Source: an uncultured delta proteobacterium (lineage in GTDB: Bacteria; Desulfobacterota; Binatia; UBA9968). Taken from it: a stretch of 64,000 nucleotides of DNA. Below are positions 47,206 to 64,000 of this stretch, one piece after another. The position numbers and the translations under genes are program-made. Below the pieces are notes generated by a model, which did no database searches, had not been told where the DNA came from, and worked only from the letters and a program-made list of their open reading frames with translations. Location: the NCBI GenBank assembly GCA_963760795.1, contig CAVXEP010000032.1, positions 352,001-416,000 of the forward strand. Reading direction: 5' to 3'. Positions within the stretch are counted from its first letter, which is position 1. Every line of letters starts with the position of its first letter.

Positions 47206-47334
47206 ACAGCGCGGTCAAGAAGGTTTTAGCTGCGAGGCGCGCGAAGTTCGATGAGCGGAGGCGTACGTTTGTAGTACGTTGGAGCGAGTCGGGCGAGCGC
47301 AACGAAGCAGATGAAGCCTTCTTGACCGCGCTGT
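47206..47334. repeat. MITE-like element with 28-bp imperfect inverted repeats
   Basis: ACAGCGCGGTCAAGAAGG... pairs with ...CCTTCTTGACCGCGCTGT. Confidence 0.8.
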
Positions 47335-47362
47335 TGACTACTGAAATTATTTTCAGTATACA
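47334..47362 (+). promoter_or_regulatory. lexA promoter overlapped by a putative LexA box
   Basis: TTGACT-N17-TATACA; palindrome TACTGAAA-TTAT-TTTCAGTA at 47339-47358. Confidence 0.8.
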
Positions 47363-47368
47363 GCTCTC

Positions 47369-47977
47369 ATGCTTCCTGCACTGACCGACCGGCAAAAGGC
47401 GATCTACGATTTTCTCTTAAAGAGTATTCGCGAGAAAGGCTTTGCGCCGTCGATCCACGAGATCGGCCGGCAGTTTAAGATCGCCTCGACCAACGGGGTT
47501 TCCGATCATCTGAAAGCGCTGGAAAAAAAAGGCTATATCCGCCGGGTCGGCAAGCGCGCCATCGAAGTCGTCAATGCTCTCGGCAAGGCGGCTATCAACG
47601 TTACCCGCGAAGTGCCGATTCTCGGCCGGGTCGCCGCCGGCAAGCCGTTTTTGAGCGAGGAAAATACCGAAGGGTTCTTAGCGATTCCCAGCGACATGGG
47701 CGGCGGTAAACAGTTCGCCCTGCAAGTCCAAGGCGACAGCATGATCGGCGCCGGCATCATGGACGGCGACCGGGTGATCGTCAAGCAGCAGACCACGGCG
47801 GAGAACGGCGAGATCGTCTGCGCCTTGATCGACGGCGAAGCGACGCTCAAGCGGTTCTACAAAAAAGACGGCGTGGTCACGCTCAAAGCGGAAAATGACA
47901 AGTACGCGCCGATCGTCGTCGCCGAAGGCGAGTTCCGCATCGCCGGAAAAATTGTCGGGCTGCTTAGGAAATTCTAA
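47369..47977 (+). CDS. lexA: LexA repressor
   Basis: LTDRQ..PSIHEIG..HLKALEKKG winged HTH, VAAG cleavage site, GDSM Ser, TLKRF Lys. Confidence 0.96.
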   Translation: MLPALTDRQKAIYDFLLKSIREKGFAPSIHEIGRQFKIASTNGVSDHLKALEKKGYIRRVGKRAIEVVNALGKAAINVTREVPILGRVAAGKPFLSEENTEGFLAIPSDMGGGKQFALQVQGDSMIGAGIMDGDRVIVKQQTTAENGEIVCALIDGEATLKRFYKKDGVVTLKAENDKYAPIVVAEGEFRIAGKIVGLLRKF

Positions 47978-47982
47978 CAGCC

Positions 47983-48077
47983 GTTCACGGGTTCAAGGTT
48001 CAAAAATTCAATCGCTGCAGATGATTCAATGCGGCGGCATGCTCTGGCGTTGAACCTTGAACCCTTGAACTTTGAAC
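47983..48077. repeat. GTTCAA/TTGAAC inverted repeat after lexA (possible terminator)
   Basis: GTTCACGGGTTCAAGGTTCAA pairs 20/21 with TTGAACCTTGAACCCTTGAAC. Confidence 0.75.
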
Positions 48078-48144
48078 CGCGCACGCAGATGCGTGCGCTT
48101 CTGGCGGAAGCCTACCCACCCGTCGCGCCTTGCAAGTAGGGTCA

Positions 48145-48571
48145 TCAACCAACCGTACGTACTCTATTCGCGTCACCGGTGAACAGCGCCGGCATCATCT
48201 TCACGAGTCTGTTTTGCAACGCGCATTCAGGGATGCACGTATTAAAGCTGGTGTGTTTAAACATGCCGGGTGCCACACATTGCGCCATTCCTTTGCCACG
48301 CACCTATTAGAGAATGGCTACGATATCAGAACAGTTCAAGAACTATTGGGCCACAGATTGCCTTTACAACTTGTCTATTGGGAGGGCTGCCTCAACCAGA
48401 CAGACGCAACGCATCGAGAGAAATACTTAAGACCGCATGGGGAAAGCGATACGTGAAAACGAGGCTCAGGAATTATCTCACAGGGTAAACGACGTAAGCA
48501 CCACGATGATTTACACCCATGTGCTGAATCGAGGCGGCAAAGGCGTGCGCAGTCCCGCGGATGGGCTGTGA
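48145..48571 (+). pseudogene. intI: integron integrase C-terminal remnant 1 (interrupted)
   Basis: [47 protein letters not shown] / [27 protein letters not shown]; N-terminus absent. Confidence 0.9.
48356..48488 (+). pseudogene. GIY-YIG nuclease C-terminal fragment inserted in intI
   Basis: [43 protein letters not shown]. Confidence 0.75.
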
Positions 48572-48600
48572 ATCACGGTTCCACGCTGCACGTATATTGA

Positions 48601-48732
48601 ATATACGAGACCAGCAATATTGGATATACGAGCGGCAGTGACAATTGACAACCTGTTGATTGCAGGAGTAAATTTCGAATTGATGATTGTTGGATATCCA
48701 ATATACGAGATCAGTTCACTCAATAGTTAGGC
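48601..48732 (+). promoter_or_regulatory. platform 1: putative Pc promoter and attI
   Basis: TTGACA(48645)-N18-TAAATT; ATATACGAG x3; GTTCACTCAATA-GTTAGGC (48726). Confidence 0.75.
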
Positions 48733-48788
48733 ACGTTGGCGTTGCCCGGAAGCAGTTTTCTGGCATGACAAAGAGTAAGGTGAAAAGG

Positions 48789-49568
48789 ATGCACCGTGAA
48801 ACGACGCCTATCGGAAATTGGCTCGCGATCGCCATGATTGCAACGAGCGCTGCGACTAACGTTACCATGGTGGCGGCTGCCGAGGTCGCGGTCCTGAGTC
48901 CAAACACAGTGAGGTCAGTCGTCACCGACGTTGCGGAGGCCTTTCAGCGAGAGACCGGGCACTCGGTTCGCTTCACGTTTCTTTCGACAGGAGCGGTGGA
49001 AAAACGAGCGAGGGTTGGAGAAGCTACCGACATCATTATCGCGACTGACGAGGCCATGGATCAGATGGCGAGTCAGAGTTTGGTTTTGCGTGACGCCCGC
49101 AGCGTTATTGGCCGAGTGGGTGTCGGGGTGGGCATTCGTGAAGGTACACCGAAGCCGGACATATCGAGCACGGATACCTTTAAGCAGACTCTGTTGTCCG
49201 CGAAATCCGTCACTTACTCGAACCCTGCGGGAGGAGGCGCGTCCGCAATCCATTTCTCCCGGGTCATCGAACGCTTGGGGATCTCACAGGCAATCAAGGA
49301 AAAGGCAGTGGTAGGTGGTTCAAACGTATGCGAACGTGTAGCGAAAGGTGAAGTCGACCTTTGCGTAACGCAGATCAGTGAAATTCTGCCAGTCAAGGGC
49401 GTTACTCTGGTCGGGCCCTTACCGCCGGACGTCCAGAACGTGACGACGCTTGTTGCAGCAATCTCCACTCGGTCCAGCGCCGTCGAAGCGGCAATGGAAT
49501 TCCTCACATTCTTGGTTCGCCCGTCGTCCAGAGCAAAGTTCGCCGAAGGTGGACTCGAATTTCGCTAG
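48789..49568 (+). CDS. cassette 1: ModA-like substrate-binding protein
   Basis: signal peptide; KPDISS, YSNPAGGGASAIHF, VGPLPPDVQ. Confidence 0.85.
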   Translation: MHRETTPIGNWLAIAMIATSAATNVTMVAAAEVAVLSPNTVRSVVTDVAEAFQRETGHSVRFTFLSTGAVEKRARVGEATDIIIATDEAMDQMASQSLVLRDARSVIGRVGVGVGIREGTPKPDISSTDTFKQTLLSAKSVTYSNPAGGGASAIHFSRVIERLGISQAIKEKAVVGGSNVCERVAKGEVDLCVTQISEILPVKGVTLVGPLPPDVQNVTTLVAAISTRSSAVEAAMEFLTFLVRPSSRAKFAEGGLEFR

Positions 49569-49612
49569 CAGCATAGACAGCGCTTGAGTCGGCGTGCTGA
49601 ACGTCGCGATCC

Positions 49613-49666
49613 GTCTAACCATCGGGTTGAGACGGACGAGTACGCCGCTCACCTAAAACGTTAGGC
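49613..49666 (+). other. attC 1
   Basis: GTCTAAC...GTTAGGC imperfect hairpin. Confidence 0.8.
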
Positions 49667-49794
49667 GGTACTGTGGGACGCGAACGAGGGAGTCACTTTA
49701 TGGTGGCCACGCTTCATGGCGGCACCATGAACCTCGCCATGCATCGGGCGAGCATTCCGACCACCTTGTGGTCATCCCGGCAAAGCGCCAGCAA

Positions 49795-50550
49795 ATGAGA
49801 AATCTTTTCGTAGACTCCTGGGGTACCGGCACGCTGGTGGTGCTGGTGCATGGCTCGCTCGCGACCGGCGCTGAGGAGTGGCAAGCGCAACGGCCGCTTG
49901 CCGATGAGGGGTTTCGCCTGTTGGTGTTTGACCGGCGCGGATATGGCCAGAGCCCTGTGGCGGAAGGTGAGGATTTCCTGCGCGATGCCCACGACATCGC
50001 CGCGCTTATGGGCGATGGTGCGCATCTCGTCGGTCACTCTTACGGGGGCCTCGGCGCACTGTTCGCAGCTGCCCGCCGTCCGGATGCGACGCTATCTCTG
50101 GCGTTGCTGGAGCCAGCTGTATTCGCGTTAGGCCTGCACCATCTAGCCGCGCGGGCCCTGGTGCATGAAGTTCGCGCCCTCTGGGATCAGGATCTCCCCA
50201 ATGAAGACTGGGTCATCCGCTTCTTGAAGGCGGTGGGGAGTGATCCTGATGTGCTGACCCCCGAGCTGATCGCCGCCGCCGTGCCGTTGGTGCCCGTGCT
50301 GCGCCGGGGGCGGCCTTTCTGGGACAGCGACCTGCCGCTGGCGGAGCTGGCGGCGGCGCCCTTTCCCAAGCTTGTCATATCAGGTGGACACAGCGCAGGG
50401 TTCGACGCGATGTGCGACGATCTCGCTGAACGCATCGGTGCATCTCGCGCGGTGGCGGCCGGTGCCGGCCATGAGATCCAGTTCACCGGGCGGCCTCTAA
50501 ACGAGTTGCTGCTCGCGCTGTGGCGCGGAGCGAACCCGCGGGCATGTTGA
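49795..50550 (+). CDS. cassette 2: alpha/beta hydrolase
   Basis: LVHG, DRRGYGQS, GHSYGG. Confidence 0.88.
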   Translation: MRNLFVDSWGTGTLVVLVHGSLATGAEEWQAQRPLADEGFRLLVFDRRGYGQSPVAEGEDFLRDAHDIAALMGDGAHLVGHSYGGLGALFAAARRPDATLSLALLEPAVFALGLHHLAARALVHEVRALWDQDLPNEDWVIRFLKAVGSDPDVLTPELIAAAVPLVPVLRRGRPFWDSDLPLAELAAAPFPKLVISGGHSAGFDAMCDDLAERIGASRAVAAGAGHEIQFTGRPLNELLLALWRGANPRAC

Positions 50551-50553
50551 ACC

Positions 50554-50621
50554 GCCTAACTTCCGGTTTCAGCCGACCGCCGCTCCTTCGCTCGCTTCGG
50601 CGGCTGAACCGTTCGTTAGAT
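50554..50621 (+). other. attC 2
   Basis: GCCTAAC...GTTAGAT; ACCGCCTAAC complements upstream GTTAGGCGGT. Confidence 0.9.
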
Positions 50622-50638
50622 CGGCTAAGAACAGGAGA

Positions 50639-51013
50639 GTGACAATGCTTAATTACGAATTAAATCGCGCGGAGAGCATATTGATTGTTAAACCTATTGG
50701 CCCCTTGGAATCAACGGATTTCGAGAAACTAGTCCAAGAAGTGGATCCCTATATCAGAGAAAAGGGCAAACTTAATGGCTTGATGATTTACGCCAAATCC
50801 TTCCCGGGATGGGATAATTTCGCAGCCTTCCTGTCCCATATAAAATTTGTCAGAAACCATCATCAGAAAATCAAGAAGATTGCGGCCGTAACGGGCAGCA
50901 GTTTTCTATCGATCATGCCGCAGGTTGCCAATCATTTTGTAGAGGCCGAAGTAAGGCACTTTGACTACGATGACAAGGATGCAGCACTAAATTGGCTTAA
51001 GGCTGACAAATGA
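50639..51013 (+). CDS. cassette 3: STAS/SpoIIAA-like protein
   Basis: FPGWD, HHQKIKKIAAV, ALNWL. Confidence 0.85.
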   Translation: MTMLNYELNRAESILIVKPIGPLESTDFEKLVQEVDPYIREKGKLNGLMIYAKSFPGWDNFAAFLSHIKFVRNHHQKIKKIAAVTGSSFLSIMPQVANHFVEAEVRHFDYDDKDAALNWLKADK

Positions 51014-51040
51014 GAATGATGAAGTATCATTTCTAAGCCG

Positions 51041-51127
51041 GTCTAACTTCAGCTGGTGCGGACGGCCCACGAGCGCGGTGCCATTTCAATCGCCTGTGCT
51101 GGCCCGTCGCACAGCACAACGTTGGGC
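51041..51127 (+). other. attC 3
   Basis: GTCTAAC...GTTGGGC. Confidence 0.85.
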
Positions 51128-51277
51128 GTCCGGAGCAAAGGGCCGACGTGTTAGTGACGTGGATCCAGCCTTGGCCGTTAATAGACGACGGGCGAGCATC
51201 CGACTAGCTCTGACGCTTCGCTCTCAATAGGTTATGGTTTTCGGCTCTTCTTAGGCTGTCTAAGGGAGGTATATGCG

Positions 51278-52312
51278 ATGACTACGCCTTTGACGATCCT
51301 GTTAGCAGACGACCAAGTGCCTTGGGATACCAACGCTGAGAACGACAGAACCAAGGCAGAGATCCGTCGCGAGTTTGCCATTGCCAAGCCACACGTTGAT
51401 GTCGATACAGCATTTGCTGACGACTACGCCTGGTTCACTGGTCTATTGGCTTATCTTGAGCACACCAAAGATGAGACGGTCATTCGTGCGCGTACGTTCG
51501 ACGAGGCAAAGCAACACCTCGAGAACCCTCGCGGCCTAGATGTCGCAATCATCGATCTTTCCTGGTGGGGAGATTACCTACTTCCGCAGGGAGCCTCTCA
51601 CCGTAATAACCGAGGGCTCAAGCTTCTTCCGGCCGCGGGAGGCGCGATCCGCTCCAAGGTTCCGATCATCTCTCTATCACAGAACTTCAGCGATGACTTC
51701 GAACTGATAAGCACCGTCTTAGAACGTGGCGCTCTTCCCGTGCCCAAGAACTATAAAGATCGAGAACTGGGTTACAGGGCGCTCTATGCAGCGGTTCAGT
51801 ATCTGACACGGGAACGCAGGCGCGGTCGCTCGAAGGTGGAAGTCTTTGTTAGTCACGCCCATGAAGACAAAGACCTCGCGCAACGATTGGTGAGAGCCAT
51901 TGAATTGGGCCTACACGTTCCCTCTGATGCTATCCGATGTACGTCGGTCCCAGGCTACGATTTCACACCTGGCACCGATTTCGTCGAGGCGCTGAAGGAG
52001 GAGCTCACAGGAGCTTCATGCGTTGTAGGCCTTTGGACTCAGCGCGGTATGAAAAGTCAGTGGTGTCTTTTTGAGCTCGGAGCGGCGTGGGGTCTGGCCC
52101 ATAAGACCTTGTTCCTGTCGCTAGGCACTGAGGCTTTGCGAGATCCACCCGCAGGGTTTCGGTCAATCCACGCCTCGCAGCTAAGCGACGCTGGGCAGCT
52201 TCGAAGGTTTCTTGAGGAGCTGGGGCGCATTACTGCTTGGCCGAATAAAAATCGCCCCGCTGCGGAAAATGAGCTTGAAGATCTGGCCCAATTCGCTAGA
52301 ACATTGCCTTGA
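51278..52312 (+). CDS. cassette 4: receiver (REC)-TIR fusion protein
   Basis: ILLADD..IIDLSW..ISLSQ..VPK receiver-like region; VFVSHAHEDK..SQWCLFELGAAW TIR. Confidence 0.8.
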   Translation: MTTPLTILLADDQVPWDTNAENDRTKAEIRREFAIAKPHVDVDTAFADDYAWFTGLLAYLEHTKDETVIRARTFDEAKQHLENPRGLDVAIIDLSWWGDYLLPQGASHRNNRGLKLLPAAGGAIRSKVPIISLSQNFSDDFELISTVLERGALPVPKNYKDRELGYRALYAAVQYLTRERRRGRSKVEVFVSHAHEDKDLAQRLVRAIELGLHVPSDAIRCTSVPGYDFTPGTDFVEALKEELTGASCVVGLWTQRGMKSQWCLFELGAAWGLAHKTLFLSLGTEALRDPPAGFRSIHASQLSDAGQLRRFLEELGRITAWPNKNRPAAENELEDLAQFARTLP

Positions 52313-52327
52313 ACCTTAAGGGCAGCC

Positions 52328-52419
52328 GCCCAACACGGCGATGCAGGGGACGCGCCGAACAGCGTAATCTAGCTTCCCAGAGACGTAGCGGCGCGCGCCC
52401 CTGATCTTATTCGTTAGGC
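52328..52419 (+). other. attC 4
   Basis: GCCCAAC (complements GTTGGGC)...GTTAGGC. Confidence 0.88.
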
Positions 52420-52448
52420 CGCCCTATGGCGATCGGGATTCCTACGTA

Positions 52449-53009
<561 letters not shown>

Positions 53010-53146
53010 ACATCCGTCGAAGCGCAGCCCCAGACAGTCTGGTGGGTCAAGGTCAGGAACGACGCTGGCCTCGTTGGCTGGACTCTTGTTGACGAGAATG
53101 TCGGCGGTGCGGATATGGACGCGTGCTCGTGAACTGTTGGCGGGCG

Positions 53147-53236
53147 GCCTAACAAGCGCTTGAAGCTGCCGGTGCGCGTAGATTAGGGAATGAATCTTTC
53201 TTCAGCGCGCCGCAGCTTAAGCGCGGTCCGTTAGGC
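53147..53236 (+). other. attC 5
   Basis: GGGCGGCCTAAC complements GTTAGGCCGCCC (12/12); ends GTTAGGC. Confidence 0.9.
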
Positions 53237-53254
53237 GTCAATCGAAAGGAAGGC

Positions 53255-53923
53255 ATGAAAATGACACGCGTCCGAGTTGAGGGCTTTACCATCTCGCTTG
53301 ACGGATACGGAGCTGGTCCGAATCAGGACATCAGGAATCCGCTCGGCGTGGGCGGGACAGATTTGCACCAGTGGTTAGTCCCGACACGCACGTTGCAACG
53401 GACCCTATTTGGCGCCGACGGTGGCACAACGGGGATCGATGACGACTTCGCTGCGCGGGGCTTCAAGAATGTTGGCGCCTGGATTCTCGGAAGAAACATG
53501 TTCGGACCGATTCGCGGTTCCTGGCCCGACATGAACTGGAAAGGCTGGTGGGGGGACAACCCACCCTATCACGTTCCAACTTTCATCTTGACTCATCACG
53601 CGCGCCCGCCCATCCAGATGGAAGGCGGAACGACATTCTACTTCGTCACGGGCGGTATTCACGAGGCGCTTGACCGGGCGCGCGACGCAGCCAACGGAAT
53701 GGATGTGCGCATTGGCGGCGGACCTAACACTATCCAGCAATATCTTCGTACGGGCCTCATCGATGAGCTGCACGTCGCTATCTCGCCGGTCCTGCTGGGC
53801 GGGGGAGAGCGACTGTTCGAGGGGATTGACGTGCGCGCTCTGGGATACGAATGCGTTCAGTTCGTTGCGTCGGAGAAAGCCACCCATGTTGTACTCCGGC
53901 GCCAAGGGCACAATGACGCCTAA
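53255..53923 (+). CDS. cassette 6: RibD-C/dihydrofolate reductase-family protein
   Basis: ISLDGYGAGP, ILGRNMFGP, GGG, GLIDEL; stop codon lies in R''. Confidence 0.88.
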   Translation: MKMTRVRVEGFTISLDGYGAGPNQDIRNPLGVGGTDLHQWLVPTRTLQRTLFGADGGTTGIDDDFAARGFKNVGAWILGRNMFGPIRGSWPDMNWKGWWGDNPPYHVPTFILTHHARPPIQMEGGTTFYFVTGGIHEALDRARDAANGMDVRIGGGPNTIQQYLRTGLIDELHVAISPVLLGGGERLFEGIDVRALGYECVQFVASEKATHVVLRRQGHNDA

Positions 53924-53978
53924 CAACCGGTTGCAGCGGACGGCGCTGCCGCGCCGCCGCTGAACCGGAACGTTAGGC
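53918..53978 (+). other. attC 6
   Basis: GCCTAAC...GTTAGGC. Confidence 0.92.
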
Positions 53979-54062
53979 GCCTTAGCATGTCTCCCGTAGA
54001 GTGAGAGTCTTCTTTAACACTGCTGGCATCGGTCACACCGAGCCCAGCCCGGAGGAGAACAA

Positions 54063-54422
54063 ATGAACCTGCAGAAAATTTACACCGCATTGCTCACCGC
54101 AGATCTTGCTGCGGCCGAGGGCTGGTATACGAAGCTGCTCGGTCGTGGACCGGACAACCGGCCGATGGACACGCTGGTGCAGTGGGAGCTCTTCGACCAG
54201 GGCGGATTGGCGCTTTCAAGCGACGACAAAATCGCCGGCAGGGGCGTGATGTTCCTTTACGTCGACGATGTCGCGGCCGAGCGCCGCAGGCTGCAGGGCC
54301 TGGGCATCGTGCTTGGCAACGACATTGAGGGTGACTACTCGACGCTGGCTCAGGTGCATGATCCCGACGGAAACCTGCTCACGCTGGCGACGCCGCCCTC
54401 GCGGCCCTTTCCACCTGCATGA
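54063..54422 (+). CDS. cassette 7: VOC/glyoxalase-family protein
   Basis: DLAAAEGWYTKLLG, DPDGN. Confidence 0.85.
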   Translation: MNLQKIYTALLTADLAAAEGWYTKLLGRGPDNRPMDTLVQWELFDQGGLALSSDDKIAGRGVMFLYVDDVAAERRRLQGLGIVLGNDIEGDYSTLAQVHDPDGNLLTLATPPSRPFPPA

Positions 54423-54454
54423 CCGCGCCAGAAGAGCGAAATCCGCGGCATGGC

Positions 54455-54513
54455 GCCTATCAACAGCATGCAGTGGACGGCGCTCGCGCCGCCGCTGATG
54501 CTGAGCGTTAGGC
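54455..54513 (+). other. attC 7 (R'' degenerate)
   Basis: GCCTATC...GTTAGGC; the following cassette is only a stub. Confidence 0.82.
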
Positions 54514-54770
54514 GCAGCCGGTGAGCGCCGTTTTCCAAATGCAAGAATATGGAGTCAGAGAAGCTTTTTTGACGAGGGCTGATCCGGTGATCCGCTGCCG
54601 ACAGAATTTGTAGGACTAAAGTTACCGCACGGCACGAGCCGTGAATCACGATTCCAGCTTATCCTCATCCTATTGTCCAGCGCGGCAACAATCGAACCGC
54701 GACCTTCTTTGTCGACGGTGATATGGCTTCTTCTTAGAATGTTTGCATCGGACCTTTTGGTTCAACCGGC

Positions 54771-56422: not shown

Positions 56423-56465
56423 GTCACATTACGGGTCCTCCCACTCCGAAGCCCAGAACCCGCTC

Positions 56466-57272
56466 ATGAGCATCAGCAGCGAGATTCGAGAGGAAATACT
56501 CAAGCGGCTACATCGAGCCGAAGTAGAACATGAGGTTCGAATCTTGTACGCTTGCGAATCAGGTAGCCGTGCCTGGAACTTTGCATCGCCAGACTCCGAC
56601 TATGACGTCCGCTTTATTTACGTTAGACCTCAAGAGTGGTATCTCTCTTTCGATATTGAGCGCCGAAGAGACGTAATCGAGTATTCAATCGTCGACGACA
56701 TTGACTGCAACGGATGGGATATCAGAAAAGCCTTGTACTTGTTCACCAGAACAAACGGGGCTCTTCTCGAATGGCTTCGCAGCCCGATCAAGTACATTGA
56801 AATCAGTTCGTTCGCTCAGCGCTTGCGAGAGCTGGCCGCCCGCGCCTTCGACGCAAAGGCGCTGTGTTACCACTACAGTCACATTGCGCGAGGAAATGCC
56901 AGAGAGTATCTGTTCGCTGATCAGGCTCAAGAAGTATTTTTATGTTTTGCGGCCGCTGTTTGCCATTATCCATATCGAACAGGGCCTCGGCATACCGCCT
57001 GTTCCCTTTGAGGAACTTGTCGATGCCGTCGCTCCAGAGCCGATTCGAGCACCGGTCGCTGAGCTTCTGACTCTAAAGCGCACACAGGGGAATTGGGGCT
57101 GGGAGCGTCCGTTCCAGCAATCGACGATTTCATCGAGCGCGAACTCGAACGCCACGGTCTTCAGTTCTCAGGTCAGGGAAGACCCGAGTTATTTGACGCA
57201 GGTGAGATTCGGCGCGAGTTGAACGAGATCTTCCGAGCCGCCGTGCGCCAAGGGAACCAAGGTGACGTCTAA
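56466..57272 (+). CDS. cassette: Pol-beta-superfamily nucleotidyltransferase (YcgL/RlaP-like; two frameshifts)
   Basis: [40 protein letters not shown]. Confidence 0.85.
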
Positions 57273-57323
57273 CTTTAGTTCGAGCGGACGCGCTGAAGCG
57301 CGCCGCTCAACATGTTGTTAGGC
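57267..57323 (+). other. attC 9
   Basis: GTGACGTCTAAC complements GTTAGACGTCAC (12/12); ends GTTAGGC. Confidence 0.9.
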
Positions 57324-57334
57324 CTTCTATTCAC

Positions 57335-57688
57335 ATGACAACAAAACATCGAATTTTTACGACGAGCTTCGCGAGCGTCTATCCTCACTATGTCGCAAAG
57401 GCAGAAAAAAAGGGGCGTAAAAAGTCAGAAGTTGATGCCGTTATTTGCTGGCTGACAGGCTACAATCAGCGGGAGTTAGAAGGACAATTGAAAAAGCAGA
57501 AAGACTTTGAAACCTTCTTCAAGGAAGCTCCCAAGCTGAATCCTTCACGAACTTTGATCAAAGGTGTAATTTGCGGCGTCCGAGTGGAAGACATTCAAGA
57601 GCCGACGATGCGGGAAATACGCTATCTAGATAAATTGGTCGATGAATTAGCAAAGGGGAAGGCGATGGACAAGATTTTGAGGGCCTAA
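57335..57688 (+). CDS. cassette: DUF2200-family protein
   Basis: [36 protein letters not shown]. Confidence 0.85.
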
Positions 57689-57776
57689 CCATGCGCTGCA
57701 GCGAACCGGGGCGGGAGCGTCCAGGTTGCAATCGGTGCGTCTCGTGGGCCAGGTCGCTGAGCTTGGGTCGTTAGAC
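57683..57776 (+). other. attC 10
   Basis: GCCTAAC...GTTAGAC. Confidence 0.9.
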
Positions 57777-57795
57777 CGACAGAGATACTTGGAAG

Positions 57796-58197
57796 ATGCA
57801 ACATCAAGGTACTGAAATCGGAAGAGCATGGTTCGCGATATGTTGGTTCGCCACTTGGGGATTGTTTCAGGGATTTGCAGTCCTCTCGGTGCTCAATGGA
57901 ACCTGGGAGCGACCAGCCGCATTTCCGGCCGGCGCATACGAGTCGCTGATCTATCCAGATATGTTCTTCATTCCTCTCTATTTTTTGGCGGCCACTCTGC
58001 TGTTTCGGCGCCACTGGCTCGGGAGCGCCCTGGCCTTTGTGGCGGGCGGTGGAATCGTCTACGCCATGATCTATCTCTTAGCTCTTTCTGATTTCTCAGG
58101 CGCGGTCAACCTGACCGCTGACGGGATATTCCTGGCCTGCACGTTTGTCTCGCTGTGGCAGGTGGGTTACCGCACCAGTCTGCGGCATGCGGTCTAA
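57796..58197 (+). CDS. cassette: four-helix membrane protein of unknown function
   Basis: 133 aa hydrophobic ORF filling the cassette; stop codon in R''. Confidence 0.75.
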   Translation: MQHQGTEIGRAWFAICWFATWGLFQGFAVLSVLNGTWERPAAFPAGAYESLIYPDMFFIPLYFLAATLLFRRHWLGSALAFVAGGGIVYAMIYLLALSDFSGAVNLTADGIFLACTFVSLWQVGYRTSLRHAV

Positions 58198-58294
58198 CAC
58201 GCCGCTGCAGTCGACGAGCGGCGCGGCTGGGTATCAGGCTGATTCAAGGGTCTTGGGTGATCGCCGCTCGCGGCTGAGCGGCATGTCGTTAGCT
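58192..58294 (+). other. attC 11
   Basis: GTCTAAC...GTTAGCT. Confidence 0.88.
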
Positions 58295-58311
58295 GGCAAA
58301 AAACGACCGCA

Positions 58312-59097
58312 ATGAAGCTACCGCTCTACCAGATTGATGCCTTTACGGGTCGAATGTTCGGCGGGAATCCCGCGGCAGTGGTGCTGCTGGATGCCTGGCT
58401 GCCTGACGACGCACTGAGGGCGATCGCCGCGGAGAACAATCTTGCCGAAACCGCATTTGTGATCCCGCATGGGGAGATCATGCCGCTACGGTGGTTCACA
58501 CCAACGGTGGAGGTCGATCTGTGTGGACATGCAACCTTGGCGACCGCAGACGTGCTCTTCCGGAATACCTTGCCCTCGGCGAAACGCCTTACATTCAGCA
58601 CGCGCAGCGGAAATCTCACGGTTACTCGGGATGGCGATCTTCTCAGCATGGATTTTCCTTCCCGTCCCGGGAAGCCAGTGGAGATAGAAGATACCGTTGT
58701 TGCGGCCTTGGGCATTCGCCCCAGAGAGTTATATCGAGCGCGCGACTTGCTTGCGATCTACGAGTCGGAGTCTCAAATACACGACTTTCGCCCGGATTTC
58801 GGGCGCATCGCTTCTCTCGATGCCTTTGCGGTCATCATCTCCGCGCCCGGTGGAGCGGTGGACTACGTTTATCGGTTTTTCGCGCCGCGCCAAGGAATCC
58901 CCGAGGATCCTGTAACCGGGTCTGCGAATTGCACGCTCGTGCCGTATTGGGCGGCGCGCCTTGGCCGCTCCGAGCTGGTTGCAAAGCAGCTTTCAGCTCG
59001 CGGCGGCGACCTTCGTTGCGCGTTGCGCGGTGATCGCGTTTTGATCGCAGGACAAGCTGTCGAGTACTTGCGCGGAGAAATTACAGTTGCTGCTTGA
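58312..59097 (+). CDS. cassette: PhzF-family isomerase
   Basis: IDAF..GGNPAAV, ETAF, EVDLCGHATLA, EDPVTGSA. Confidence 0.92.
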   Translation: MKLPLYQIDAFTGRMFGGNPAAVVLLDAWLPDDALRAIAAENNLAETAFVIPHGEIMPLRWFTPTVEVDLCGHATLATADVLFRNTLPSAKRLTFSTRSGNLTVTRDGDLLSMDFPSRPGKPVEIEDTVVAALGIRPRELYRARDLLAIYESESQIHDFRPDFGRIASLDAFAVIISAPGGAVDYVYRFFAPRQGIPEDPVTGSANCTLVPYWAARLGRSELVAKQLSARGGDLRCALRGDRVLIAGQAVEYLRGEITVAA

Positions 59098-59106
59098 TCA
59101 TTTGCC

Positions 59107-59171
59107 AGCTAACCCCTCGCTTCAGAACGGATCAGCCGCAGGCGGCCGGCCGCTGAGCTAGTATGTTATGC
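59107..59171 (+). other. attC 12
   Basis: TTTGCCAGCTAAC complements GTTAGCTGGCAAA (13/13); ends GTTATGC. Confidence 0.9.
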
Positions 59172-59250
59172 GGCGTCGTTCTGAAGTCTTACATGACTAT
59201 CCTCCACTGTCTTGCAAATGAAATATATCTGGAACTTCTAGGATGAGAAC

Positions 59251-59670
59251 ATGAAAAAGTCGGGCGCGAGCCAAGGCCAGTCGGCATCGGAGCTCATCTC
59301 GAAAAGAATCGCCGAACTCGGGGACTGGCGCGGGGAAACCCTCAGCAGAATGCGCAAGCTCATCAAGGAAGCAGACCCGGACGTCGTCGAGGAGTGGAAG
59401 TGGATGGGCACTCCGGTTTGGTCGCACGACGGCATCATCTGCACTGGCGAATCCTACAAGAATGTCGTGAAGCTTACCTTCGCCAAGGGCGCGTCTCTGA
59501 AGGATCCGGCCCGTCTCTTCAACTCGAGTCTCGACGGAAACGTACGCCGCGCGATCGACATCCACGAAGGAGAAGAAGTTGACGAGTCCGCCTTCAAGGC
59601 GCTCGTTCGCCAAGCGGTCGCCCTCAACAGTTCTGGCAAGTCGAAACCTTCGAAGAAAGCGAAGTCCTAA
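59251..59670 (+). CDS. cassette: DUF1801 (YdhG-like) protein
   Basis: [25 protein letters not shown]. Confidence 0.87.
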
Positions 59671-59731
59671 GGGATTCCGCCCCTGAACAGGTCCGACATC
59701 GGGCGAATTCCGTGAAACTCAGGCAATTGCC

Positions 59732-59791
59732 GCATAACAATTCATTCAAGCCGAACCCGCTTCGCGGGTCGGCTTAATTCAGGCGTTAGAC
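59732..59791 (+). other. attC 13 (aadA/Xanthomonas-like, 60 bp)
   Basis: GCATAACAATTCATTCAAGCCGAACCCGCTTCGCGGGTCGGCTTAATTCAGGCGTTAGAC. Confidence 0.93.
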
Positions 59792-59802
59792 GGCACACGA
59801 GG

Positions 59803-60428
59803 ATGGGATCATTGCTCACATTGACTATTGTCTTCGTATTCGACGCTCGCGACGAGCGACCTGCTGGGTGCGGCTCGTGCCGAGGTGCCGGCGGGCACGC
59901 TTGAGATCCGTCTGGCCTCTGGGACTGCTTTGGAGCAAAGGGGACGGGAGCAGCTGGAACGCCTCCTGGCGACCCACGACCTCTCACGCTGGCTGTTCAC
60001 GCGGACCGTACAAATCCAATCACGGGTGATTCCGCACAGCCACCCGGTTCTCACACTGAACACGCAGTACCTCGACAACGACGCGGCGCAGCTAGCGAGC
60101 TTCCTTCATGAGCAACTGCATTGGTTTCTCGTTCAGAACCAGGCGAAGTTGGCGTCCGCGGTTACGGCACTGGAACGTCTGTATCCCAAGGTTCCAGAGG
60201 CGGCACGCCGAAGGGGCCAACGGCCGAGGCAGCACGTACCTCCACCTGCTCGTTTGTCTCCTCGAGTTTGACGCCGTGCGTGACGTCCTCGGGGAGACAA
60301 CGGCACGCGCTACACTCGGGGCCTTCGGGTACTACACGTGGGTGTATCGCGAGGTGCTCGAACGGCCCGAGGCAATCCGGCAGATCCTCCGCACACAGGG
60401 TCTTGACGTGCCAGACGCACGCCGTTGA
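59803..60428 (+). CDS. cassette: hypothetical exported protein with HExxH motif (frameshifted)
   Basis: GAGG + ATG 59803, hydrophobic start; PHSHPVLTL, FLHEQLHWF. Confidence 0.65.
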
Positions 60429-60431
60429 ATC

Positions 60432-60463
60432 GTCTAACAAGGCGACGGACGCCGACGTTGGGC
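60432..60463 (+). other. attC 14, internally deleted (32 bp)
   Basis: GTCTAAC-18 nt-GTTGGGC; both cores are complemented by the neighbouring cassette ends. Confidence 0.75.
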
Positions 60464-60476
60464 GGCGAGTTAGGAA

Positions 60477-61112
60477 GTGAGTGGAAGGATGGAAGCTGAA
60501 GAATCAGAAGACGTTCTCAGGTTTTGGTTTCCCGAGCTCTCGGGCGCCGACCACGCGAGGATGGTCCGCCAATTTGAGTGGTGGTTTCGCGGTGGCGCGG
60601 ATTCTGCCATTGTTGAACGGTTTGCCCAGCTGCTGGAGCGTGCGACGCGCGGCGAACTCGATCACTGGTCTCAGTGGCCACGACCGCGGCTGGCGCTGAT
60701 CATCGTTCTGGACCAGTTCTCCCGCTCCCTGTTTCGGGACACGGCGCGGGCGTTCGCACAAGATCCGAAAGCCCTCGCGCTCGCGCTTGAAGGAATTGAA
60801 ATCGGTCACTATGCGGCTCTAAACACTCCTTGGGAGAAGACCTTCTTCTTCCTCCCATTGGGGCATTCCGAGCAGCTCTACCATCTGGAGCGGGCCGTCA
60901 CACTTGCCGAGGAGCTTGCGGGAAGTGCACCACCGGAACTGCGCAAGATTTTGGAGCACTCCGCGTCGCAGGCGCGTGGACATCGAGATGTAATCGCCCG
61001 CTTCGGTCGCCAGCCTCATCGCAATGCGATCCTCGGACGGCAATCGACCCCCGAGGAACTCGACTACCTGGCTAGCGAGAAACTCGTGCACACGCGTGCG
61101 CCACCCCAATAG
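60477..61112 (+). CDS. cassette: DUF924-family protein
   Basis: VLRFWF, IIVLDQFSR, PLGHSE, IARFGRQPHRNAILGR. Confidence 0.9.
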   Translation: MSGRMEAEESEDVLRFWFPELSGADHARMVRQFEWWFRGGADSAIVERFAQLLERATRGELDHWSQWPRPRLALIIVLDQFSRSLFRDTARAFAQDPKALALALEGIEIGHYAALNTPWEKTFFFLPLGHSEQLYHLERAVTLAEELAGSAPPELRKILEHSASQARGHRDVIARFGRQPHRNAILGRQSTPEELDYLASEKLVHTRAPPQ

Positions 61113-61128
61113 TCATGCGAGCAGCGCC

Positions 61129-61163
61129 GCCCAACCGATGCAGCGGACCGCTTCGAAGCAGGC
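61129..61163 (+). other. attC 15, left half only
   Basis: CGCCGCCCAAC complements GTTGGGCGGCG; ATGCAGCGGAC follows, right arm missing. Confidence 0.7.
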
Positions 61164-61291
61164 TTTTTGCCCCCGAAATGATTGACAAGATGAAGCGAGT
61201 TGATTGATATGCAGCCGATATGAGTCCTAAATATTTACGAGGTTCGGGATATCCCGCCGGACGAACCGGCGGTTCACTTTAATAGTTCGGC
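61164..61291 (+). promoter_or_regulatory. platform 3: putative promoter and attI
   Basis: ATTGACA at 61181; GTTCACTTTAATA-GTTCGGC resembles platform 1 GTTCACTCAATA-GTTAGGC. Confidence 0.65.
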
Positions 61292-61314
61292 GACACTCAC
61301 GCGTTGCTCAACTC

Positions 61315-61728
61315 ATGGAGGATCAAGCAATGCTCAAGACTTATGCCGGGGGCTGTCACTGTGGTGCTGTCAGATTCGAAGCCGAACTCGACCTATCGCA
61401 AAGCAGCTACCGATGTAACTGCTCGATCTGCCGTCGAAACCGATTCTGGGTGGCGGTCGCTAAGCCCGAGGGCTTTCGGTTGGTGAAGGGCGAAGGAGAG
61501 CTGACGGAGTACCTGTTCAATACTCGAAAGAATCAACATCTCTTCTGCAAGCACTGCGGTGTCCGTGCTTTCGGAGTCGGAAACGATACGCCAATCGGCA
61601 AGATGTACGGGATCAACATCGGGTGCCTTGAGGGCGTCTCTGAAGAGGAATTGTCGAAGATTCCTATCACCTATGTGGACGGCCGAAATAACAGGCAAGA
61701 GTCCCCCGAGTTTGTTGCGCATCTATGA
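61315..61728 (+). CDS. cassette: GFA/CENP-V family protein
   Basis: GGCHCGAVRF, CNCSIC, FCKHCG. Confidence 0.92.
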   Translation: MEDQAMLKTYAGGCHCGAVRFEAELDLSQSSYRCNCSICRRNRFWVAVAKPEGFRLVKGEGELTEYLFNTRKNQHLFCKHCGVRAFGVGNDTPIGKMYGINIGCLEGVSEEELSKIPITYVDGRNNRQESPEFVAHL

Positions 61729-61750
61729 ACGAGAATGGCTCGCGTAAGTT

Positions 61751-61839
61751 GCCGAACACCGGTTGCAGCGGACGGAGATAGATAAAGAGCCAAGGCACGT
61801 ACGTTGGCGCGCGCCGCCCCCTGAACCGGGACATTTAAA
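61751..61839 (+). other. attC 16 (terminal, R' degenerate)
   Basis: GCCGAAC complements GTTCGGC at 61285; CCGGTTGCAG..CTGAACCGG arms; no GTT at R'. Confidence 0.75.
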
Positions 61840-61996
61840 TAAAGCTCCCCCTTTCTAGCATTTTCTACATCCTACGAACGCAGCGTGACTTTTCTGTCGC
61901 AGCTCGATCCTGCCGTTCTGAAGCTGTTGTCGATTGCTGATCTCGTCGTTTGTGTCCCGCTCTGGTGCCAGAGCAATTTTCCCGGAGTGCCCATTC

Positions 61997-62593
61997 ATGG
62001 CTTTATCTCCCGCGCAAAAACTTCGTCCCGCTATTCCATCGACGCCGTGGACGCTTGACGAGGTCGCCGGGCGATTCGTCGAGATCTCCGGAGCGGCGGC
62101 TTCGGCGGCGCTGACGCTGACGTTTACTTTGATTCGCGAGGCGCAGGCGCGCGGCGAGCCGGTGGGCTGGATCACCTTGGCGGAACATTCTTTTTATCCG
62201 CCGGATGTCGCTCAAGGCGGCACCGATCTGGCGGCGTTGGTGGTGGTGCGTTTAGCGCGCGCCGACAGCATCGCCCGCGCCGGCGAGAAGCTGCTGCGCT
62301 CCGGCGCTTTCGGCGTCGTCGTGCTCGATCTCGGCGCCGCCGATATGCCGATGCCGCTGCAGACGCGCTTGACCGGCCTGGCCCATCACCATCACACGGC
62401 GCTGATTTGTTTGACGGAAAAAACTCACGGCGCCTTTTCTCTCGGTTCGCTGGTTTCCTTGCGCGCCCATGCCGAGAAGAAGCGCTTAACAGACAATCGC
62501 TTCGCCTGCGCTCTGCGCGTGCTCAAGGACAAACGGCGCGGCCCCACCTGGACTTATGAAGAGCTCTATACCGGGCCGGCTGGCCTGTGTTGA
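61997..62593 (+). CDS. imuA: ImuA/RecA-like protein
   Basis: GRFVEISG, FYPPD, LLRSGAFGVVVLD; overlaps a Y-family gene. Confidence 0.8.
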   Translation: MALSPAQKLRPAIPSTPWTLDEVAGRFVEISGAAASAALTLTFTLIREAQARGEPVGWITLAEHSFYPPDVAQGGTDLAALVVVRLARADSIARAGEKLLRSGAFGVVVLDLGAADMPMPLQTRLTGLAHHHHTALICLTEKTHGAFSLGSLVSLRAHAEKKRLTDNRFACALRVLKDKRRGPTWTYEELYTGPAGLC

Positions 62594-64000
62594 TCTGCCG
62601 GCGTTTCCATTGCAACTCTTGCTCCGGCGCCATCCCGACTGGGCCGGTCATCCGGCGGCGGTGGTGGCGCAGGACAAGCCGCAGGGGTTGGTCCTCTGGG
62701 TCAATGACAGCGCGCGCCGGCAGGGCGTGCTGCCCGGTCTGCGCTACGCCGCAGCGTTTGCGCTCGCGTCGACGTTGCGCGCCGGCGAAGTTTCTCCGGC
62801 TGAGAATGAAAAGGCGCTTGGCGATTTAACTCAGCGGCTGATGCGTTTTACTCCCGAGGTCGAGCCGGCGGCGCAAGAGCCCGGCGTTTTTTGGTTGAAC
62901 GGTGCTGGGCTGCAAGGTCTCTATGCTTCGCCCAAGCAATGGGCCAGCGCCATGCAACAAGATCTCTCCGCTCAGGGTTTTAGCGCCAATCTCGCCGTCG
63001 GTTTCAGCCGCTTCGGCAGTTATGCGGTCGCCAAGACGAAAGCGGGAATCACCATCTTTCGCGATGCTGTCGAGGAAAAGCAGGCGGCGAGCGCTGTGCC
63101 GCTCAACCGTTTGAACCTCGAGCCCAAGTTTCGCGATGCGCTGTTCAAGCTCGGCGTCAAAACTGTCGGCGCGCTGTTGTCCCTGCCGCCGGGCGGGCTG
63201 CGCGAGCGCTTCGGCAAACAAGCCCATCGTCTGCACCGCATGGCCGCCGGCGATCTGTGGACGCCGCTGGCGCCGAGCGTGACGGTGGAACCGGCGCGGC
63301 AGACGGCTATTCTCGATGACGCTGAGAGCGACAGCACCCGGCTGCTGTTTCTGATCAAACAACTGCTCCATCCATTGTTAACAACCCTCGCCGCGCGCCA
63401 TCAGGCGCTGGTCGCGCTCTGGTTATCTTTGCGGATCGATCACGGCGACTGCTTCAAAGAATCGCTGCGCCCAGCCGTGCCGACACTCGATGCCGTGCAG
63501 ATTCTCGATCTCGTCCGGCTGCGCTTGGAATCTCTTCAGCTTGCCGCCGGCGCGATCGAAATCGAGCTCTGCGCCGAAGCCTGCGCCGCCACCAGCGAGC
63601 AGTTGCGCTTATTTAACGAAAAACCAACCCGGGACCTCGAAGCCGCCAACCGCGCGCTGGCGCGTCTGCGCGCCGAGTTCGGCGACGACGCGGTGGTCTG
63701 CGCCAAGCTCACCGACGGCCATCTGCCCGAAGCAAGATTTACCTGGGAGCCGCTCACTCAAGTCAAACTTCCGACAAACGTTTTGAACGAAGCGAAGCGG
63801 TTGAACGATTTGAACGGCTTGAACCTCTCCACTCCAAATATGCTGATCCGCCGCGTCAACCAAAAGCCGATGCCCTTGGCCGGCGGCCCGTATCACAGCC
63901 ACGAAGACGGCTGGCTCGTCTTGGGCCCCAAGCATGGCACCATCGACAAACTCGCCGGCCCCTACGTCTTCGCCGGCGGCTGGTGGAACCGCGAGATCCA
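62556..64000 (+). CDS. imuB: ImuB, Y-family polymerase-like (runs off window; absent from ORF track)
   Basis: own translation: MKSSIPGRLACVDLPAFPLQ..ARRQGVLPG..FTPEVE..LRERFG..LRAEFG..HLPE..GGWW. Confidence 0.88.
   Translation, partial: MKSSIPGRLACVDLPAFPLQLLLRRHPDWAGHPAAVVAQDKPQGLVLWVNDSARRQGVLPGLRYAAAFALASTLRAGEVSPAENEKALGDLTQRLMRFTPEVEPAAQEPGVFWLNGAGLQGLYASPKQWASAMQQDLSAQGFSANLAVGFSRFGSYAVAKTKAGITIFRDAVEEKQAASAVPLNRLNLEPKFRDALFKLGVKTVGALLSLPPGGLRERFGKQAHRLHRMAAGDLWTPLAPSVTVEPARQTAILDDAESDSTRLLFLIKQLLHPLLTTLAARHQALVALWLSLRIDHGDCFKESLRPAVPTLDAVQILDLVRLRLESLQLAAGAIEIELCAEACAATSEQLRLFNEKPTRDLEAANRALARLRAEFGDDAVVCAKLTDGHLPEARFTWEPLTQVKLPTNVLNEAKRLNDLNGLNLSTPNMLIRRVNQKPMPLAGGPYHSHEDGWLVLGPKHGTIDKLAGPYVFAGGWWNREI
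63782..63824 (+). repeat. TTGAAC repeat inside imuB
   Basis: four TTGAAC units read in frame as LNEAKRLNDLNGLN. Confidence 0.75.

Follow-up and report, generated by a model that had tools for sequence, protein, structure and literature searches.

Integron cassette arrays inside a LexA-headed lexA-imuA-imuB-dnaE2 operon of Binatia: a decayed form and its relatives

The DNA analysed here is a stretch of 64,000 nucleotides (the window; G000:C32:352001-416000) from the genome of an uncultured delta proteobacterium of the Binatia, in which lexA is followed by remnants of an integron integrase gene (intI), by gene cassettes with their attC sites and by imuA-imuB. We propose, with a probability of about 0.8, that this soil bacterium and its relatives carry sedentary chromosomal integrons, with intI co-oriented with the cassettes, inside a LexA-headed lexA-imuA-imuB-dnaE2 operon, and that in the relatives intI is most likely a distal gene of this SOS operon. 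The genome under study is a decayed form of this family-wide arrangement. No SOS-induced generators of genetic novelty are better known than integrons and the imuA-imuB-dnaE2 mutasome, which have been treated as separate targets of LexA. Here they are physically nested, repeatedly and across a long evolutionary distance, with the integrase placed where only read-through of the operon would control it, and this suggests a stress switch common to gene shuffling and mutagenesis.

The assembly under study (G000) holds 6.58 Mb in 35 contigs, is 88.9% complete and 6.2% contaminated, and has the window on a contig of 546 kb. Other G and L codes denote relative genomes and loci; f1 is the family of G000 itself, f3 its sister family and f2 a second family. 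Every genome used is a metagenome bin, and as kin are not independent of one another the linkage tallies given below describe an arrangement and are no statistical test of linkage. Profile matches are judged by cut-offs of 265 bits for TIGR02249 (IntI), 111 for TIGR00498 (LexA), 939 for NF004225 (DnaE2) and 150 for NCBIfam ImuA.

A first-pass annotation of the window had listed lexA, an intI remnant, 16 co-oriented cassettes and imuA-imuB, all on the + strand, and both the profiles and a covariance model of attC bear this out. The locus reads as follows, C32 marking positions on the contig.

47339-47358, + strand: LexA-type palindrome TACTG-N10-CAGTA, core CTGAAA-N4-TTTCAG, between the TTGACT -35 and TATACA -10 of the lexA promoter
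47369-47977, + strand: lexA; TIGR00498 213 bits, Pfam LexA_DNA_bind and Peptidase_S24
47983-48070, no strand: inverted GTTCAA-type heptamer arms (I4), 21-nt arms, 95% complementary
48169-48355, + strand: intI remnant 1a; TIGR02249 positions 227-288 (48169-48354), 94 bits, below the cut-off of 265; Pfam Phage_integrase
48356-48487, no strand: 132-bp insertion splitting intI remnant 1; absent from G013, where its flanks are contiguous, and unique in the genome
48488-48571, + strand: intI remnant 1b, the C-terminal end with the box II tyrosine region and stop codon; TIGR02249 positions 276-315 at 48440-48568
48572-48728, + strand: putative attI region, 157 nt after the intI stop; direct repeat family D8; homologous to G013 and G005
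48729-54516, + strand: cassettes 1-7, first platform
54640-54940, + strand: second platform remnant between cassettes 7 and 8; intI C-terminal fragment and a diverged attI-like stretch with TTGACA
54941-61841, + strand: cassettes 8-16, second platform
61835-61933, + strand: array end and imuA leader; hybrid R' box of the last attC, then ~95 nt conserved in G000, G013 and G014
61934-62593, + strand: imuA; Pfam RecA fold 33.8 bits, NCBIfam ImuA 29.3 bits, below the cut-off of 150; precedes imuB in all relatives
62556 to C32:416100 (window-equivalent 64100), + strand: imuB; Pfam IMS 39 bits, 514 aa, full length against relatives
C32:451295-454486, + strand: dnaE2, error-prone, 1063 aa; NF004225 1239 bits against the cut-off of 939

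In one respect the locus differs from that first description, which had a single array with one intI remnant. The count of 16 cassettes stands, and a second intI fragment lies inside the array (54769-54849, TIGR02249 positions 289-315, 24.8 bits, with a further scrap near 54640-54665), its platform carrying the direct repeat D2 that is 76% identical to 48491-48564; there are therefore two tandem platforms, of 7 and 9 cassettes, which with their attC sites take up 14 kb. A third intI remnant, which ends in ...LNRGGRGVNSPADHL before its stop, lies beyond the window after imuB, a four-helix-bundle gene and a helix-turn-helix (HTH) gene. The parts of the first remnant are 84% (1a) and 90% (1b) identical in nucleotides to the intact lexA-side intI of G013, in comparison with which ~1.2 kb is missing after lexA, comprising a four-helix-bundle gene and the first two thirds of intI.

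To judge by the sequence, all three integrase genes of G000 are decayed to C-terminal scraps. The assembly yields no IntI above the TIGR02249 cut-off (the best match reaches 94 against 265 bits and spans positions 227-315 only) and so lacks the integrase of a complete integron. With at least two attC sites and no functional intI nearby it qualifies as a CALIN, and its arrays are now fossil (CALIN-like) because all three integrases have decayed. Such statements of absence are limited for G000, as the assembly is incomplete and lacks even dnaE1: PF07733 (DNA_pol3_alpha) has a single match in it, which is DnaE2, and the replicative DnaE1 is missing.

The intI remnants point in the same direction as the cassettes (+) and are not divergent from them, the orientation that defines the inverted-integrase integrons, and the putative attI region lies after the intI stop. 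It carries three copies of ATATTGRATATACGAG (48594-48614, 48617-48637 and 48694-48714), direct repeats that could be binding sites of the integrase, and ends at the predicted crossover G/TT at 48726-48728, in the sequence CAATAG/TTAGGC. Conservation with G013 and G005 extends through ...CAATRG/TT, past which the three sequences diverge, and blastn homology to G013 stops at 48728. Within attI lies a candidate promoter Pc (TTGACA-18-TAAATT, 48645-48674), the best promoter-like site in 47-64 kb with 10 of 12 matches, whose -35 hexamer is kept in all three aligned platforms and whose -10 in two of the three.

Between attI and 61841 stand 16 co-oriented units of an open reading frame (ORF) plus attC, all on the + strand. 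The covariance model of attC was built in this analysis from 8 shorter sites with a hand-written structure, the longest sites being left out because of misalignment by MAFFT. It finds 15 full sites on the + strand from 49610 to 61832, those of cassettes 1-7 all stronger on + than on -, and 7 of the 15 lie outside the training set (E 2.7e-6 to 0.57). The sites it describes are R''-L''...L'-R' imperfect palindromes, one per cassette, with the textbook layout GCCTAAC ... TGCAGCGGAC ... CCGCTGA ... GTTAGGC, and in several cassettes the TAA within the R'' box GCCTAAC is the stop codon of the ORF. Outside the array the window (~52 kb) gives one weak match (38752-38820, - strand, 19.7 bits, E 0.032), which is probably due to chance, and a crude scan for RYYYAAC...GTTRRRY over all 6.58 Mb returned 153 matches, 8 of them in a single 10-kb bin of the array and 3 in the next best bin. 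Two other approaches were set aside: a finder that demanded an ungapped or global alignment of L'' with L' missed the majority of true sites and was dropped, and a two-half weight matrix, which returned many low-scoring pairs genome-wide, served as a pointer only. Elsewhere in G000 the model matches three times within 2.6 kb at C34:86144-88751, twice at C9:102335-103155 and once each at C4:161706-161773 and C25:2131-2219; these are small CALINs or solitary cassettes distant from any intI.

At its far end the array gives way to imuA. The hybrid R' box reads ATTTAAATAAAGC in G000 and GTTAAATAAAGC in G013 and G014, and homology resumes from there, at 61835 for G013 and at 61865 for G014. In G014 the last attC of the distal array lies 250 nt upstream of dnaE2 and is followed by a similar ...GTTAGGCCGCATAAAGCTC. 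We read the ~95-nt leader as what may be the right half of the original attI. Each array would have grown at attI, leaving the right attI half at the far end beside imuA or dnaE2. Matching array ends are what growth by insertion at attI predicts, and the ends on the imuA side (GTTAAATAAAGC, G013 and G014) and on the dnaE2 side (GTTAGGCCGCATAAAGC, G014) do resemble the right half of one kind of attI. In G014 the array-end/imuA leader also contains four tandem copies of the 14-nt unit CTACATTCCTGCRA (L050 ~2930-3020, imuA upstream), of which G000 has one copy.

The imuB gene overlaps imuA by 38 nt. Behind it lie a four-helix-bundle gene with heptamer arrays on either side, then an XRE/HigA-like HTH gene and then the third intI scrap. 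The first-pass annotation had proposed to look for dnaE2 beyond position 64000; the gene is not just past that point, being 35 kb further on behind the third remnant and more cassettes. These ~35 kb hold cassette-like genes, mostly on the + strand (ankyrin, glyoxalase, L-PSP, DUF1272, RibD_C, cupin, NMT1 binding proteins, a TIR protein, an SBP_bac_11 fragment, PLD and Tag glycosylase), with four model-detectable attC sites left, at C32:418821, 421331, 429380 and 430465. G000 thus has the imuA-imuB-dnaE2 gene set, all three genes being full-length, but not as one contiguous transcription unit: the operon is split twice, with lexA 14 kb before imuA and dnaE2 35 kb after imuB, and the whole locus measures ~55 kb.

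That the integron was inserted into a pre-existing operon, as the first-pass annotation had supposed, is upheld by outgroups. A genome of the same genus (G007) has an uninterrupted lexA, four-helix-bundle gene, imuA, imuB, HTH gene and dnaE2. Two sister-family genomes (G037 and G038, f3) have a contiguous lexA-imuA-imuB-dnaE2, and two of family f2 (G027 and G029) a contiguous imuA-imuB-dnaE2. The adjacency of lexA and imuA for which it had proposed to look in related genomes therefore exists in G037 and G038, and in G007 with only the four-helix-bundle gene between them. Between lexA and imuA the attC model has 13 matches in G013 and 4 in G014, every one on the strand of the operon, and it has none in the G007 and G037 loci. 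The opposite course of events, in which imuA-imuB was captured into a pre-existing large integron array, would suit the cassette arrays that flank imuAB on both sides and the last attC that lies 95 nt upstream of imuA, and dispersal of imuA-imuB-dnaE2 by transfer is mentioned in the parts of PMC3323433 that deal with the cassette. We nevertheless hold it to be very improbable: an uninterrupted operon is found within the genus and in two further families; the genes upstream (a VWA gene and lexA) keep their synteny whether or not a genome has the array; no attC follows imuB, after which come the four-helix-bundle and HTH genes as they also do in array-free G007; and each array starts with an intI-attI of its own.

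In the relatives integrases are found intact. At homologous places their IntI scores 445-482 bits with TIGR02249. Matches above the cut-off occur in 9 of 31 genomes of the genus (one unpublished) and in 32 of 121 of the order, and at E<=1e-40 IntI is found in 41 of 87 genomes of f1, 2 of 5 of f2 and 0 of 28 of f3. In G013 the order is VWA gene, lexA, four-helix-bundle gene, intact intI, 13 attC sites, imuA, imuB, four-helix-bundle gene, HTH gene, a second intact intI and more cassettes, with dnaE2, which carries three in-frame stops, 29 kb further on. G014 has a 5-kb array of 4 attC sites without intI between lexA and imuA, an intact intI after imuB and an intact dnaE2 33 kb away; in G005, G014, G013 and G019 dnaE2 lies 23-35 kb downstream on the same strand. 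Integrons sit at two entry points of the operon, directly after lexA and after imuB with its four-helix-bundle and HTH genes, and the latter, an insertion point that had been missed in the window's first annotation, is the commoner and more widespread.

Forty intI places in published genomes had a locus, each with at most ~1.5 kb upstream. The upstream gene is imuB within 1.5 kb in 10, imuB at 1.9-2.9 kb in 2, lexA in 5, and only the post-imuB four-helix-bundle/HTH genes in 3, and all 20 of these operon-linked places (0 opposite) have intI on the strand of the operon gene. Within family f1, nine genera have lexA- or imuB-linked places. The intI gene starts ~20 nt past the HTH gene, or 100-280 nt past lexA or imuB (for lexA 100-230 nt, or after one small gene), and in family f2 (G027 and G029) a broken intI begins within ~5-15 nt of the dnaE2 stop. 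Among the 78 titled IntI loci kept (two were left out as possibly unpublished), lexA or imuAB stands upstream and co-oriented in 12, and among the 55 with at least 2.5 kb upstream in 9. One of the loci comes from a metagenome-assembled genome (MAG) titled Acidobacteriota (L142), in which an imuA-like gene (RecA fold, 56 bits), an imuB-like gene (IMS, 78 bits; 25% identical to ImuB of G000) and a BrnA-like gene precede intI, whose start overlaps the preceding small gene (ATGA).

A quick tree of 70 IntIs, with SH-aLRT as its only support, places the operon-linked IntIs within one group of 22; the nearest 70 include IntIs from Chlorobi, Planctomycetes and cyanobacteria. The lexA-side IntI of G013 has an imuB-side IntI as its sister (SH-aLRT 97), and there is a separate second lexA-side lineage, giving at least two changes for the lexA-side label. 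From this tree, the lexA site was probably colonised more than once from imuB-side stock. The tree does not settle how the second platform arose. Unequal crossing-over between two four-helix-bundle modules was considered as the origin of the lexA-side platform and rejected, as its products mismatch the observed order.

The lexA gene is the sole one found in the G000 assembly (a single tblastn match at E<=1e-8), and the perfect palindrome TACTGAAATTATTTTCAGTA, 29 bases upstream of it, is the only match to the motif in the 64-kb window. We take this palindrome in the lexA promoter as a candidate LexA operator to which binding is predicted. The CTGAAA-N4-TTTCAG palindrome is kept between the -35 and -10 of the lexA promoter in all nine family-f1 loci examined, and in the corresponding position two sister-family (f3) loci carry another palindrome. 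No second LexA-type site was found at up to 2 mismatches in the 61 kb of C32:395-456 kb, nor before dnaE2 in G005, G013 and G014; in 21 loci none was found near the operon at up to 1 mismatch besides that of the lexA promoter (where the locus reaches the 5' end of lexA). A LexA box was thus sought before imuA, intI and dnaE2, here and in relatives, and none was found, an absence that concerns this motif only; an operator private to intI, of the Vibrio/class 1 type, is not seen. G005 has in addition a second, divergent lexA-like gene (G005:C109, L086 2140-2679), 37% identical to LexA of G000 and resembling the sister-family LexA, which sits just downstream of a partial intI on a separate contig.

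In the lexA-intI or imuB-intI gaps of three relatives, crude scans of the operon strand show no promoter- or terminator-like site. As the sole LexA-type operator is in the lexA promoter and the gaps show no such site, the most likely course is that intI is read as one of the distal genes of the SOS operon. Damage to DNA would then lift the repression of LexA, the ImuA-ImuB-DnaE2 mutasome and the integrase through one switch, and membership of the operon would replace the private LexA box that intI has in Vibrio and class 1 integrons, while the cassettes would be read from the candidate Pc within attI and by read-through. That intI might be reached by read-through from lexA, as the first-pass annotation had suggested, fits the relatives. 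It had also brought cassette shuffling and mutagenesis together in one SOS locus: the shared locus holds, shuffling by an integrase of its own does not hold for G000, where intI is dead. We consider the structure of that interpretation supported and the regulation, as deduced from motifs and gene order, plausible.

Several points weigh against this proposal. The scans for promoters and terminators are crude, and not even the lexA promoter satisfies the promoter rule applied, so that an unrecognised promoter of intI is quite possible. Since imuAB (14 kb) and dnaE2 (~49 kb) are intact so far from the lexA promoter, internal promoters must exist, the candidate Pc for example, and these weaken the picture of a single switch. 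At 20 of the 40 intI places no operon gene appears in the ~1.5 kb available upstream, many of these places lying at contig ends, and G007 has its uninterrupted operon with its intI elsewhere. The sole data from RNA libraries are short contigs (X15), which cover lexA, five cassettes (1, 4, 6, 8 and 16) and imuB; they are a mere hint, being short, possibly from carried-over DNA and devoid of strand or ends, and cannot show one transcript. Lastly, an intact intI could lie in the unassembled part of the 89%-complete G000.

Some of these points would also suit a more modest explanation, in which the integrons are real, the gaps in the operon are mere tolerant landing sites, co-orientation comes from a replication constraint and intI has a non-LexA promoter of its own. 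The internal promoters implied by intact imuAB and dnaE2 and the 20 of 40 places without an operon gene upstream favour it; optional four-helix-bundle genes, set between dispersed GTTCAA repeats, are present as well in the gaps that follow lexA and imuB, so that insertions are evidently accepted there; and integrases often decay, 41 of the intI places matched at E<=1e-40 being above the TIGR02249 cut-off against ~30 that are partial or have stops. Yet we consider this explanation unlikely, because the linkage is found in nine genera at three points of the operon (after lexA, after imuB and, in f2, after dnaE2) and again in the Acidobacteriota-titled MAG with so distant an ImuB, the orientation is the same in 20 of 20 linked places, the spacing is tight (~20 nt after HTH, ~5-15 nt from the dnaE2 stop, the ATGA overlap in L142), and no private LexA box or promoter-like site was seen.

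Placing intI as a distal gene of the operon can be carried further, if tentatively. The integrase would be the distal gene of a LexA-controlled mutasome operon in a family of soil bacteria and, independently, in Acidobacteriota, forming a single 'evolvability operon', and in the boldest form the linkage would be mechanistic, with the mutasome polymerase acting in the replication by which the single-strand attC x attI junction is resolved. Doubtful as we regard this extension, such a linkage, if true, would explain why intI returns to imuB/dnaE2 rather than to other SOS genes. The loci offer a natural test of whether SOS control of integrases evolves by operon capture or by a private operator, and they allow one to ask if translesion synthesis and cassette recombination work together. 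The cost of an array in the operon is visible: growth to tens of kb, death of the integrase (three times in G000), and imuB or dnaE2 apparently broken in some relatives, where apparent frameshifts of imuB (G019, G018, G017 and L087) and stops in dnaE2 (G013 and G019) may be sequencing errors.

Arrays are almost wholly different between genomes whose flanking genes (lexA, imuAB) are 76-94% identical. The exception is a RibD_C cassette (53208/53452-53974), 97.7-97.8% identical among G000, G013 and G014, which is sixth in G000, first after attI in G013 and part of the post-imuB array in G014. Parts of the stretch were found in 22 public runs from 11 studies, mostly of soil; contig mapping covered four soil runs, and bins with little or no cover carry no evidence. 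A 667-nt soil contig (X5 record 22) bridges cassette 16 to imuA via a different attC core, the proximal junction is covered in all four runs, and contigs from two studies skip cassette 14 (59785/59794 to 60495). Two joints in the X1 data (47977 to 63801 and 48077 to 63776) were left unused, having sides of 23-26 letters that probably come from repeats. In the four soil runs the summed contig depth of three cassettes (RibD_C 52103-53236, DUF2200 57206-57772 and DUF1801 58907-60040) is 10-100 times, or up to hundreds of times, that of their neighbours and may include other organisms; at >=95% identity these cassettes seem common in other soil organisms.

The same data bear on the possibility of an artefact, that is, of chimeric MAG junctions or of repeats that are not attC sites. 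The assembly is MAG-like with 6% contamination, and attC and heptamer repeats can mislead assemblers. Still, an artefact is barely credible here. The contig measures 546 kb, and G013 and G014 show homologous junctions at both ends; the distal junction is spanned by the independent contig from soil, and the proximal one has cover in all four runs. The repeats have the R''/L''/L'/R' build and fit the model on a single strand, and in relatives the intI genes next to them pass the curated IntI model. Misassembled junctions, which would have refuted the first-pass annotation, are very improbable.

The 190 nt after lexA carry an inverted pair of GTTCAA-type heptamer arrays ahead of intI remnant 1, and in relatives (by comparison with G007, L087, L098 and L101) a four-helix-bundle gene lies between the heptamer repeats at the equivalent of 47983-48070. 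Such arrays are dispersed over at least 35 places in the G000 genome. Four-helix-bundle genes (TIGR02436, '23S rRNA intervening sequence protein') flanked by inverted GTTCAAN arrays occupy the gaps after lexA and after imuB; arrays or genes of this kind were seen at 47100-47160 and 47983-48070 of the window, at C32:416100-416650 and in L053, L087, L098 and L101, and some genomes have the heptamer arrays without a gene, as an empty site. Gene and arrays together look like a small insertion module. An antitoxin-like DNA-binding gene stands directly ahead of intI, XRE/HigA-like in Binatia-type loci (C32:416655-416954; L054 1749-1967) and BrnA-like in the Acidobacteriota-titled locus (L142 9483-9944), and in array-free G007 the HTH gene stands before dnaE2; this gene may be a regulator of the distal operon genes.

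The cassettes, listed from Pfam, covariance model matches and direct reading of the sequences, are all on the + strand.

Cassette 1, within 48687-49568, +: SBP_bac_11; attC 49610-49669
Cassette 2, 49768-50550, +: alpha/beta hydrolase; attC 50551-50624
Cassette 3, 50639-51013, +: SpoIIAA-like; attC 51037-51130
Cassette 4, 51278-52312, +: TIR protein; attC 52325-52422
Cassette 5, 52449-53009, +: RibD_C; attC 53144-53239
Cassette 6, 53255-53923, +: RibD_C; attC 53915-53981
Cassette 7, 54063-54422, +: glyoxalase; attC 54452-54516
Cassette 8, 54941-56020, +: ApbA/PanE, with an SRPBCC-like fragment; attC 56347-56425
Cassette 9, 56466-57222, +: RlaP-like, frameshifted; attC 57264-57326
Cassette 10, 57335-57688, +: DUF2200; attC 57680-57779
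Cassette 11, 57796-58197, +: unknown; attC 58189-58297
Cassette 12, 58312-59097, +: PhzF; attC 59104-59174
Cassette 13, 59251-59670, +: DUF1801; attC 59729-59794
Cassette 14, 59828-60271, +: unknown; attC 60429-60466
Cassette 15, 60477-61112, +: DUF924; attC half site near 61125
Cassette 16, 61315-61728, +: GFA; last attC 61751-61841

The SRPBCC-like gene fragment behind the ApbA cassette is without an attC of its own, and the RlaP-like nucleotidyltransferase cassette (56466-57222) consists of two overlapping ORFs whose Pfam match spans profile positions 1-145 of 249. TIR-domain cassette proteins with weak SpbK/ThsB-like matches and a PLD nuclease with DrmC-like matches (51278-52312 of the window; L003 12613-13110; L001 10035-11318) point to possible anti-phage cassettes. 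The arrays are a large unexplored reservoir of soil cassettes, TIR-domain proteins included.

The nesting of an integron in this operon had been put forward as undescribed, and text searches of the literature agree: they returned no description of an integron inside lexA-imuA-imuB-dnaE2 (supplements, including the intI locus list of PMC3108266, were outside their scope) and no integron literature for Binatota/Binatia. The passages of that paper on regulation (Cambray 2011) treat private LexA boxes of intI and mention neither imuA nor the operon. In what they describe for LexA-controlled integrases of Vibrio and class 1 integrons, the present loci share the tie of integron recombination to SOS, the beta/gamma-type CTG-N10-CAG operator and an intI that often decays in sedentary integrons. 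In Vibrio and class 1 integrons intI runs divergently from the cassettes under a LexA box of its own, whereas here it is co-oriented behind lexA, imuB or dnaE2, with no box of its own in 21 loci. Such LexA control was reportedly established by Guerin in 2009 for the integrases of the Vibrio cholerae superintegron and class 1 integrons.

Treponema denticola is presumably an example of the inverted-integrase integrons, and we know of none of these inside an SOS operon. The group is a recognised class in the relevant part of PMC3575428, with intI in the direction of the cassettes and attI downstream of the intI stop, and the attC strand here and in the relatives agrees with it; the likeness is one of orientation. 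As to the operon, the sections of Sanchez-Alberola 2012 (PMC3323433) on Vibrio report that presence of the mutagenesis cassette correlates with the superintegron's chromosome and describe no physical nesting. With the lexA-imuA-imuB-dnaE2 cassette as it appears there, our loci have in common the gene set, its order and lexA at the head with the operator in its promoter; they differ in that cassettes interrupt the operon of G000 at two points, over 14 kb and 35 kb, with four-helix-bundle and HTH genes interleaved. The arrays of G000, with their attC sites, co-oriented promoterless-looking ORFs and intI pseudogene scraps, do not differ in kind from CALINs. The lexA-imuA-imuB-dnaE2 adaptive mutagenesis cassette is said to go back to Erill in 2006, and the term CALIN, for attC clusters without an integrase, reportedly to Cury in 2016. 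Relative to CALINs, the novelty lies in the placement within the operon and in the existence of intact counterparts among the relatives.

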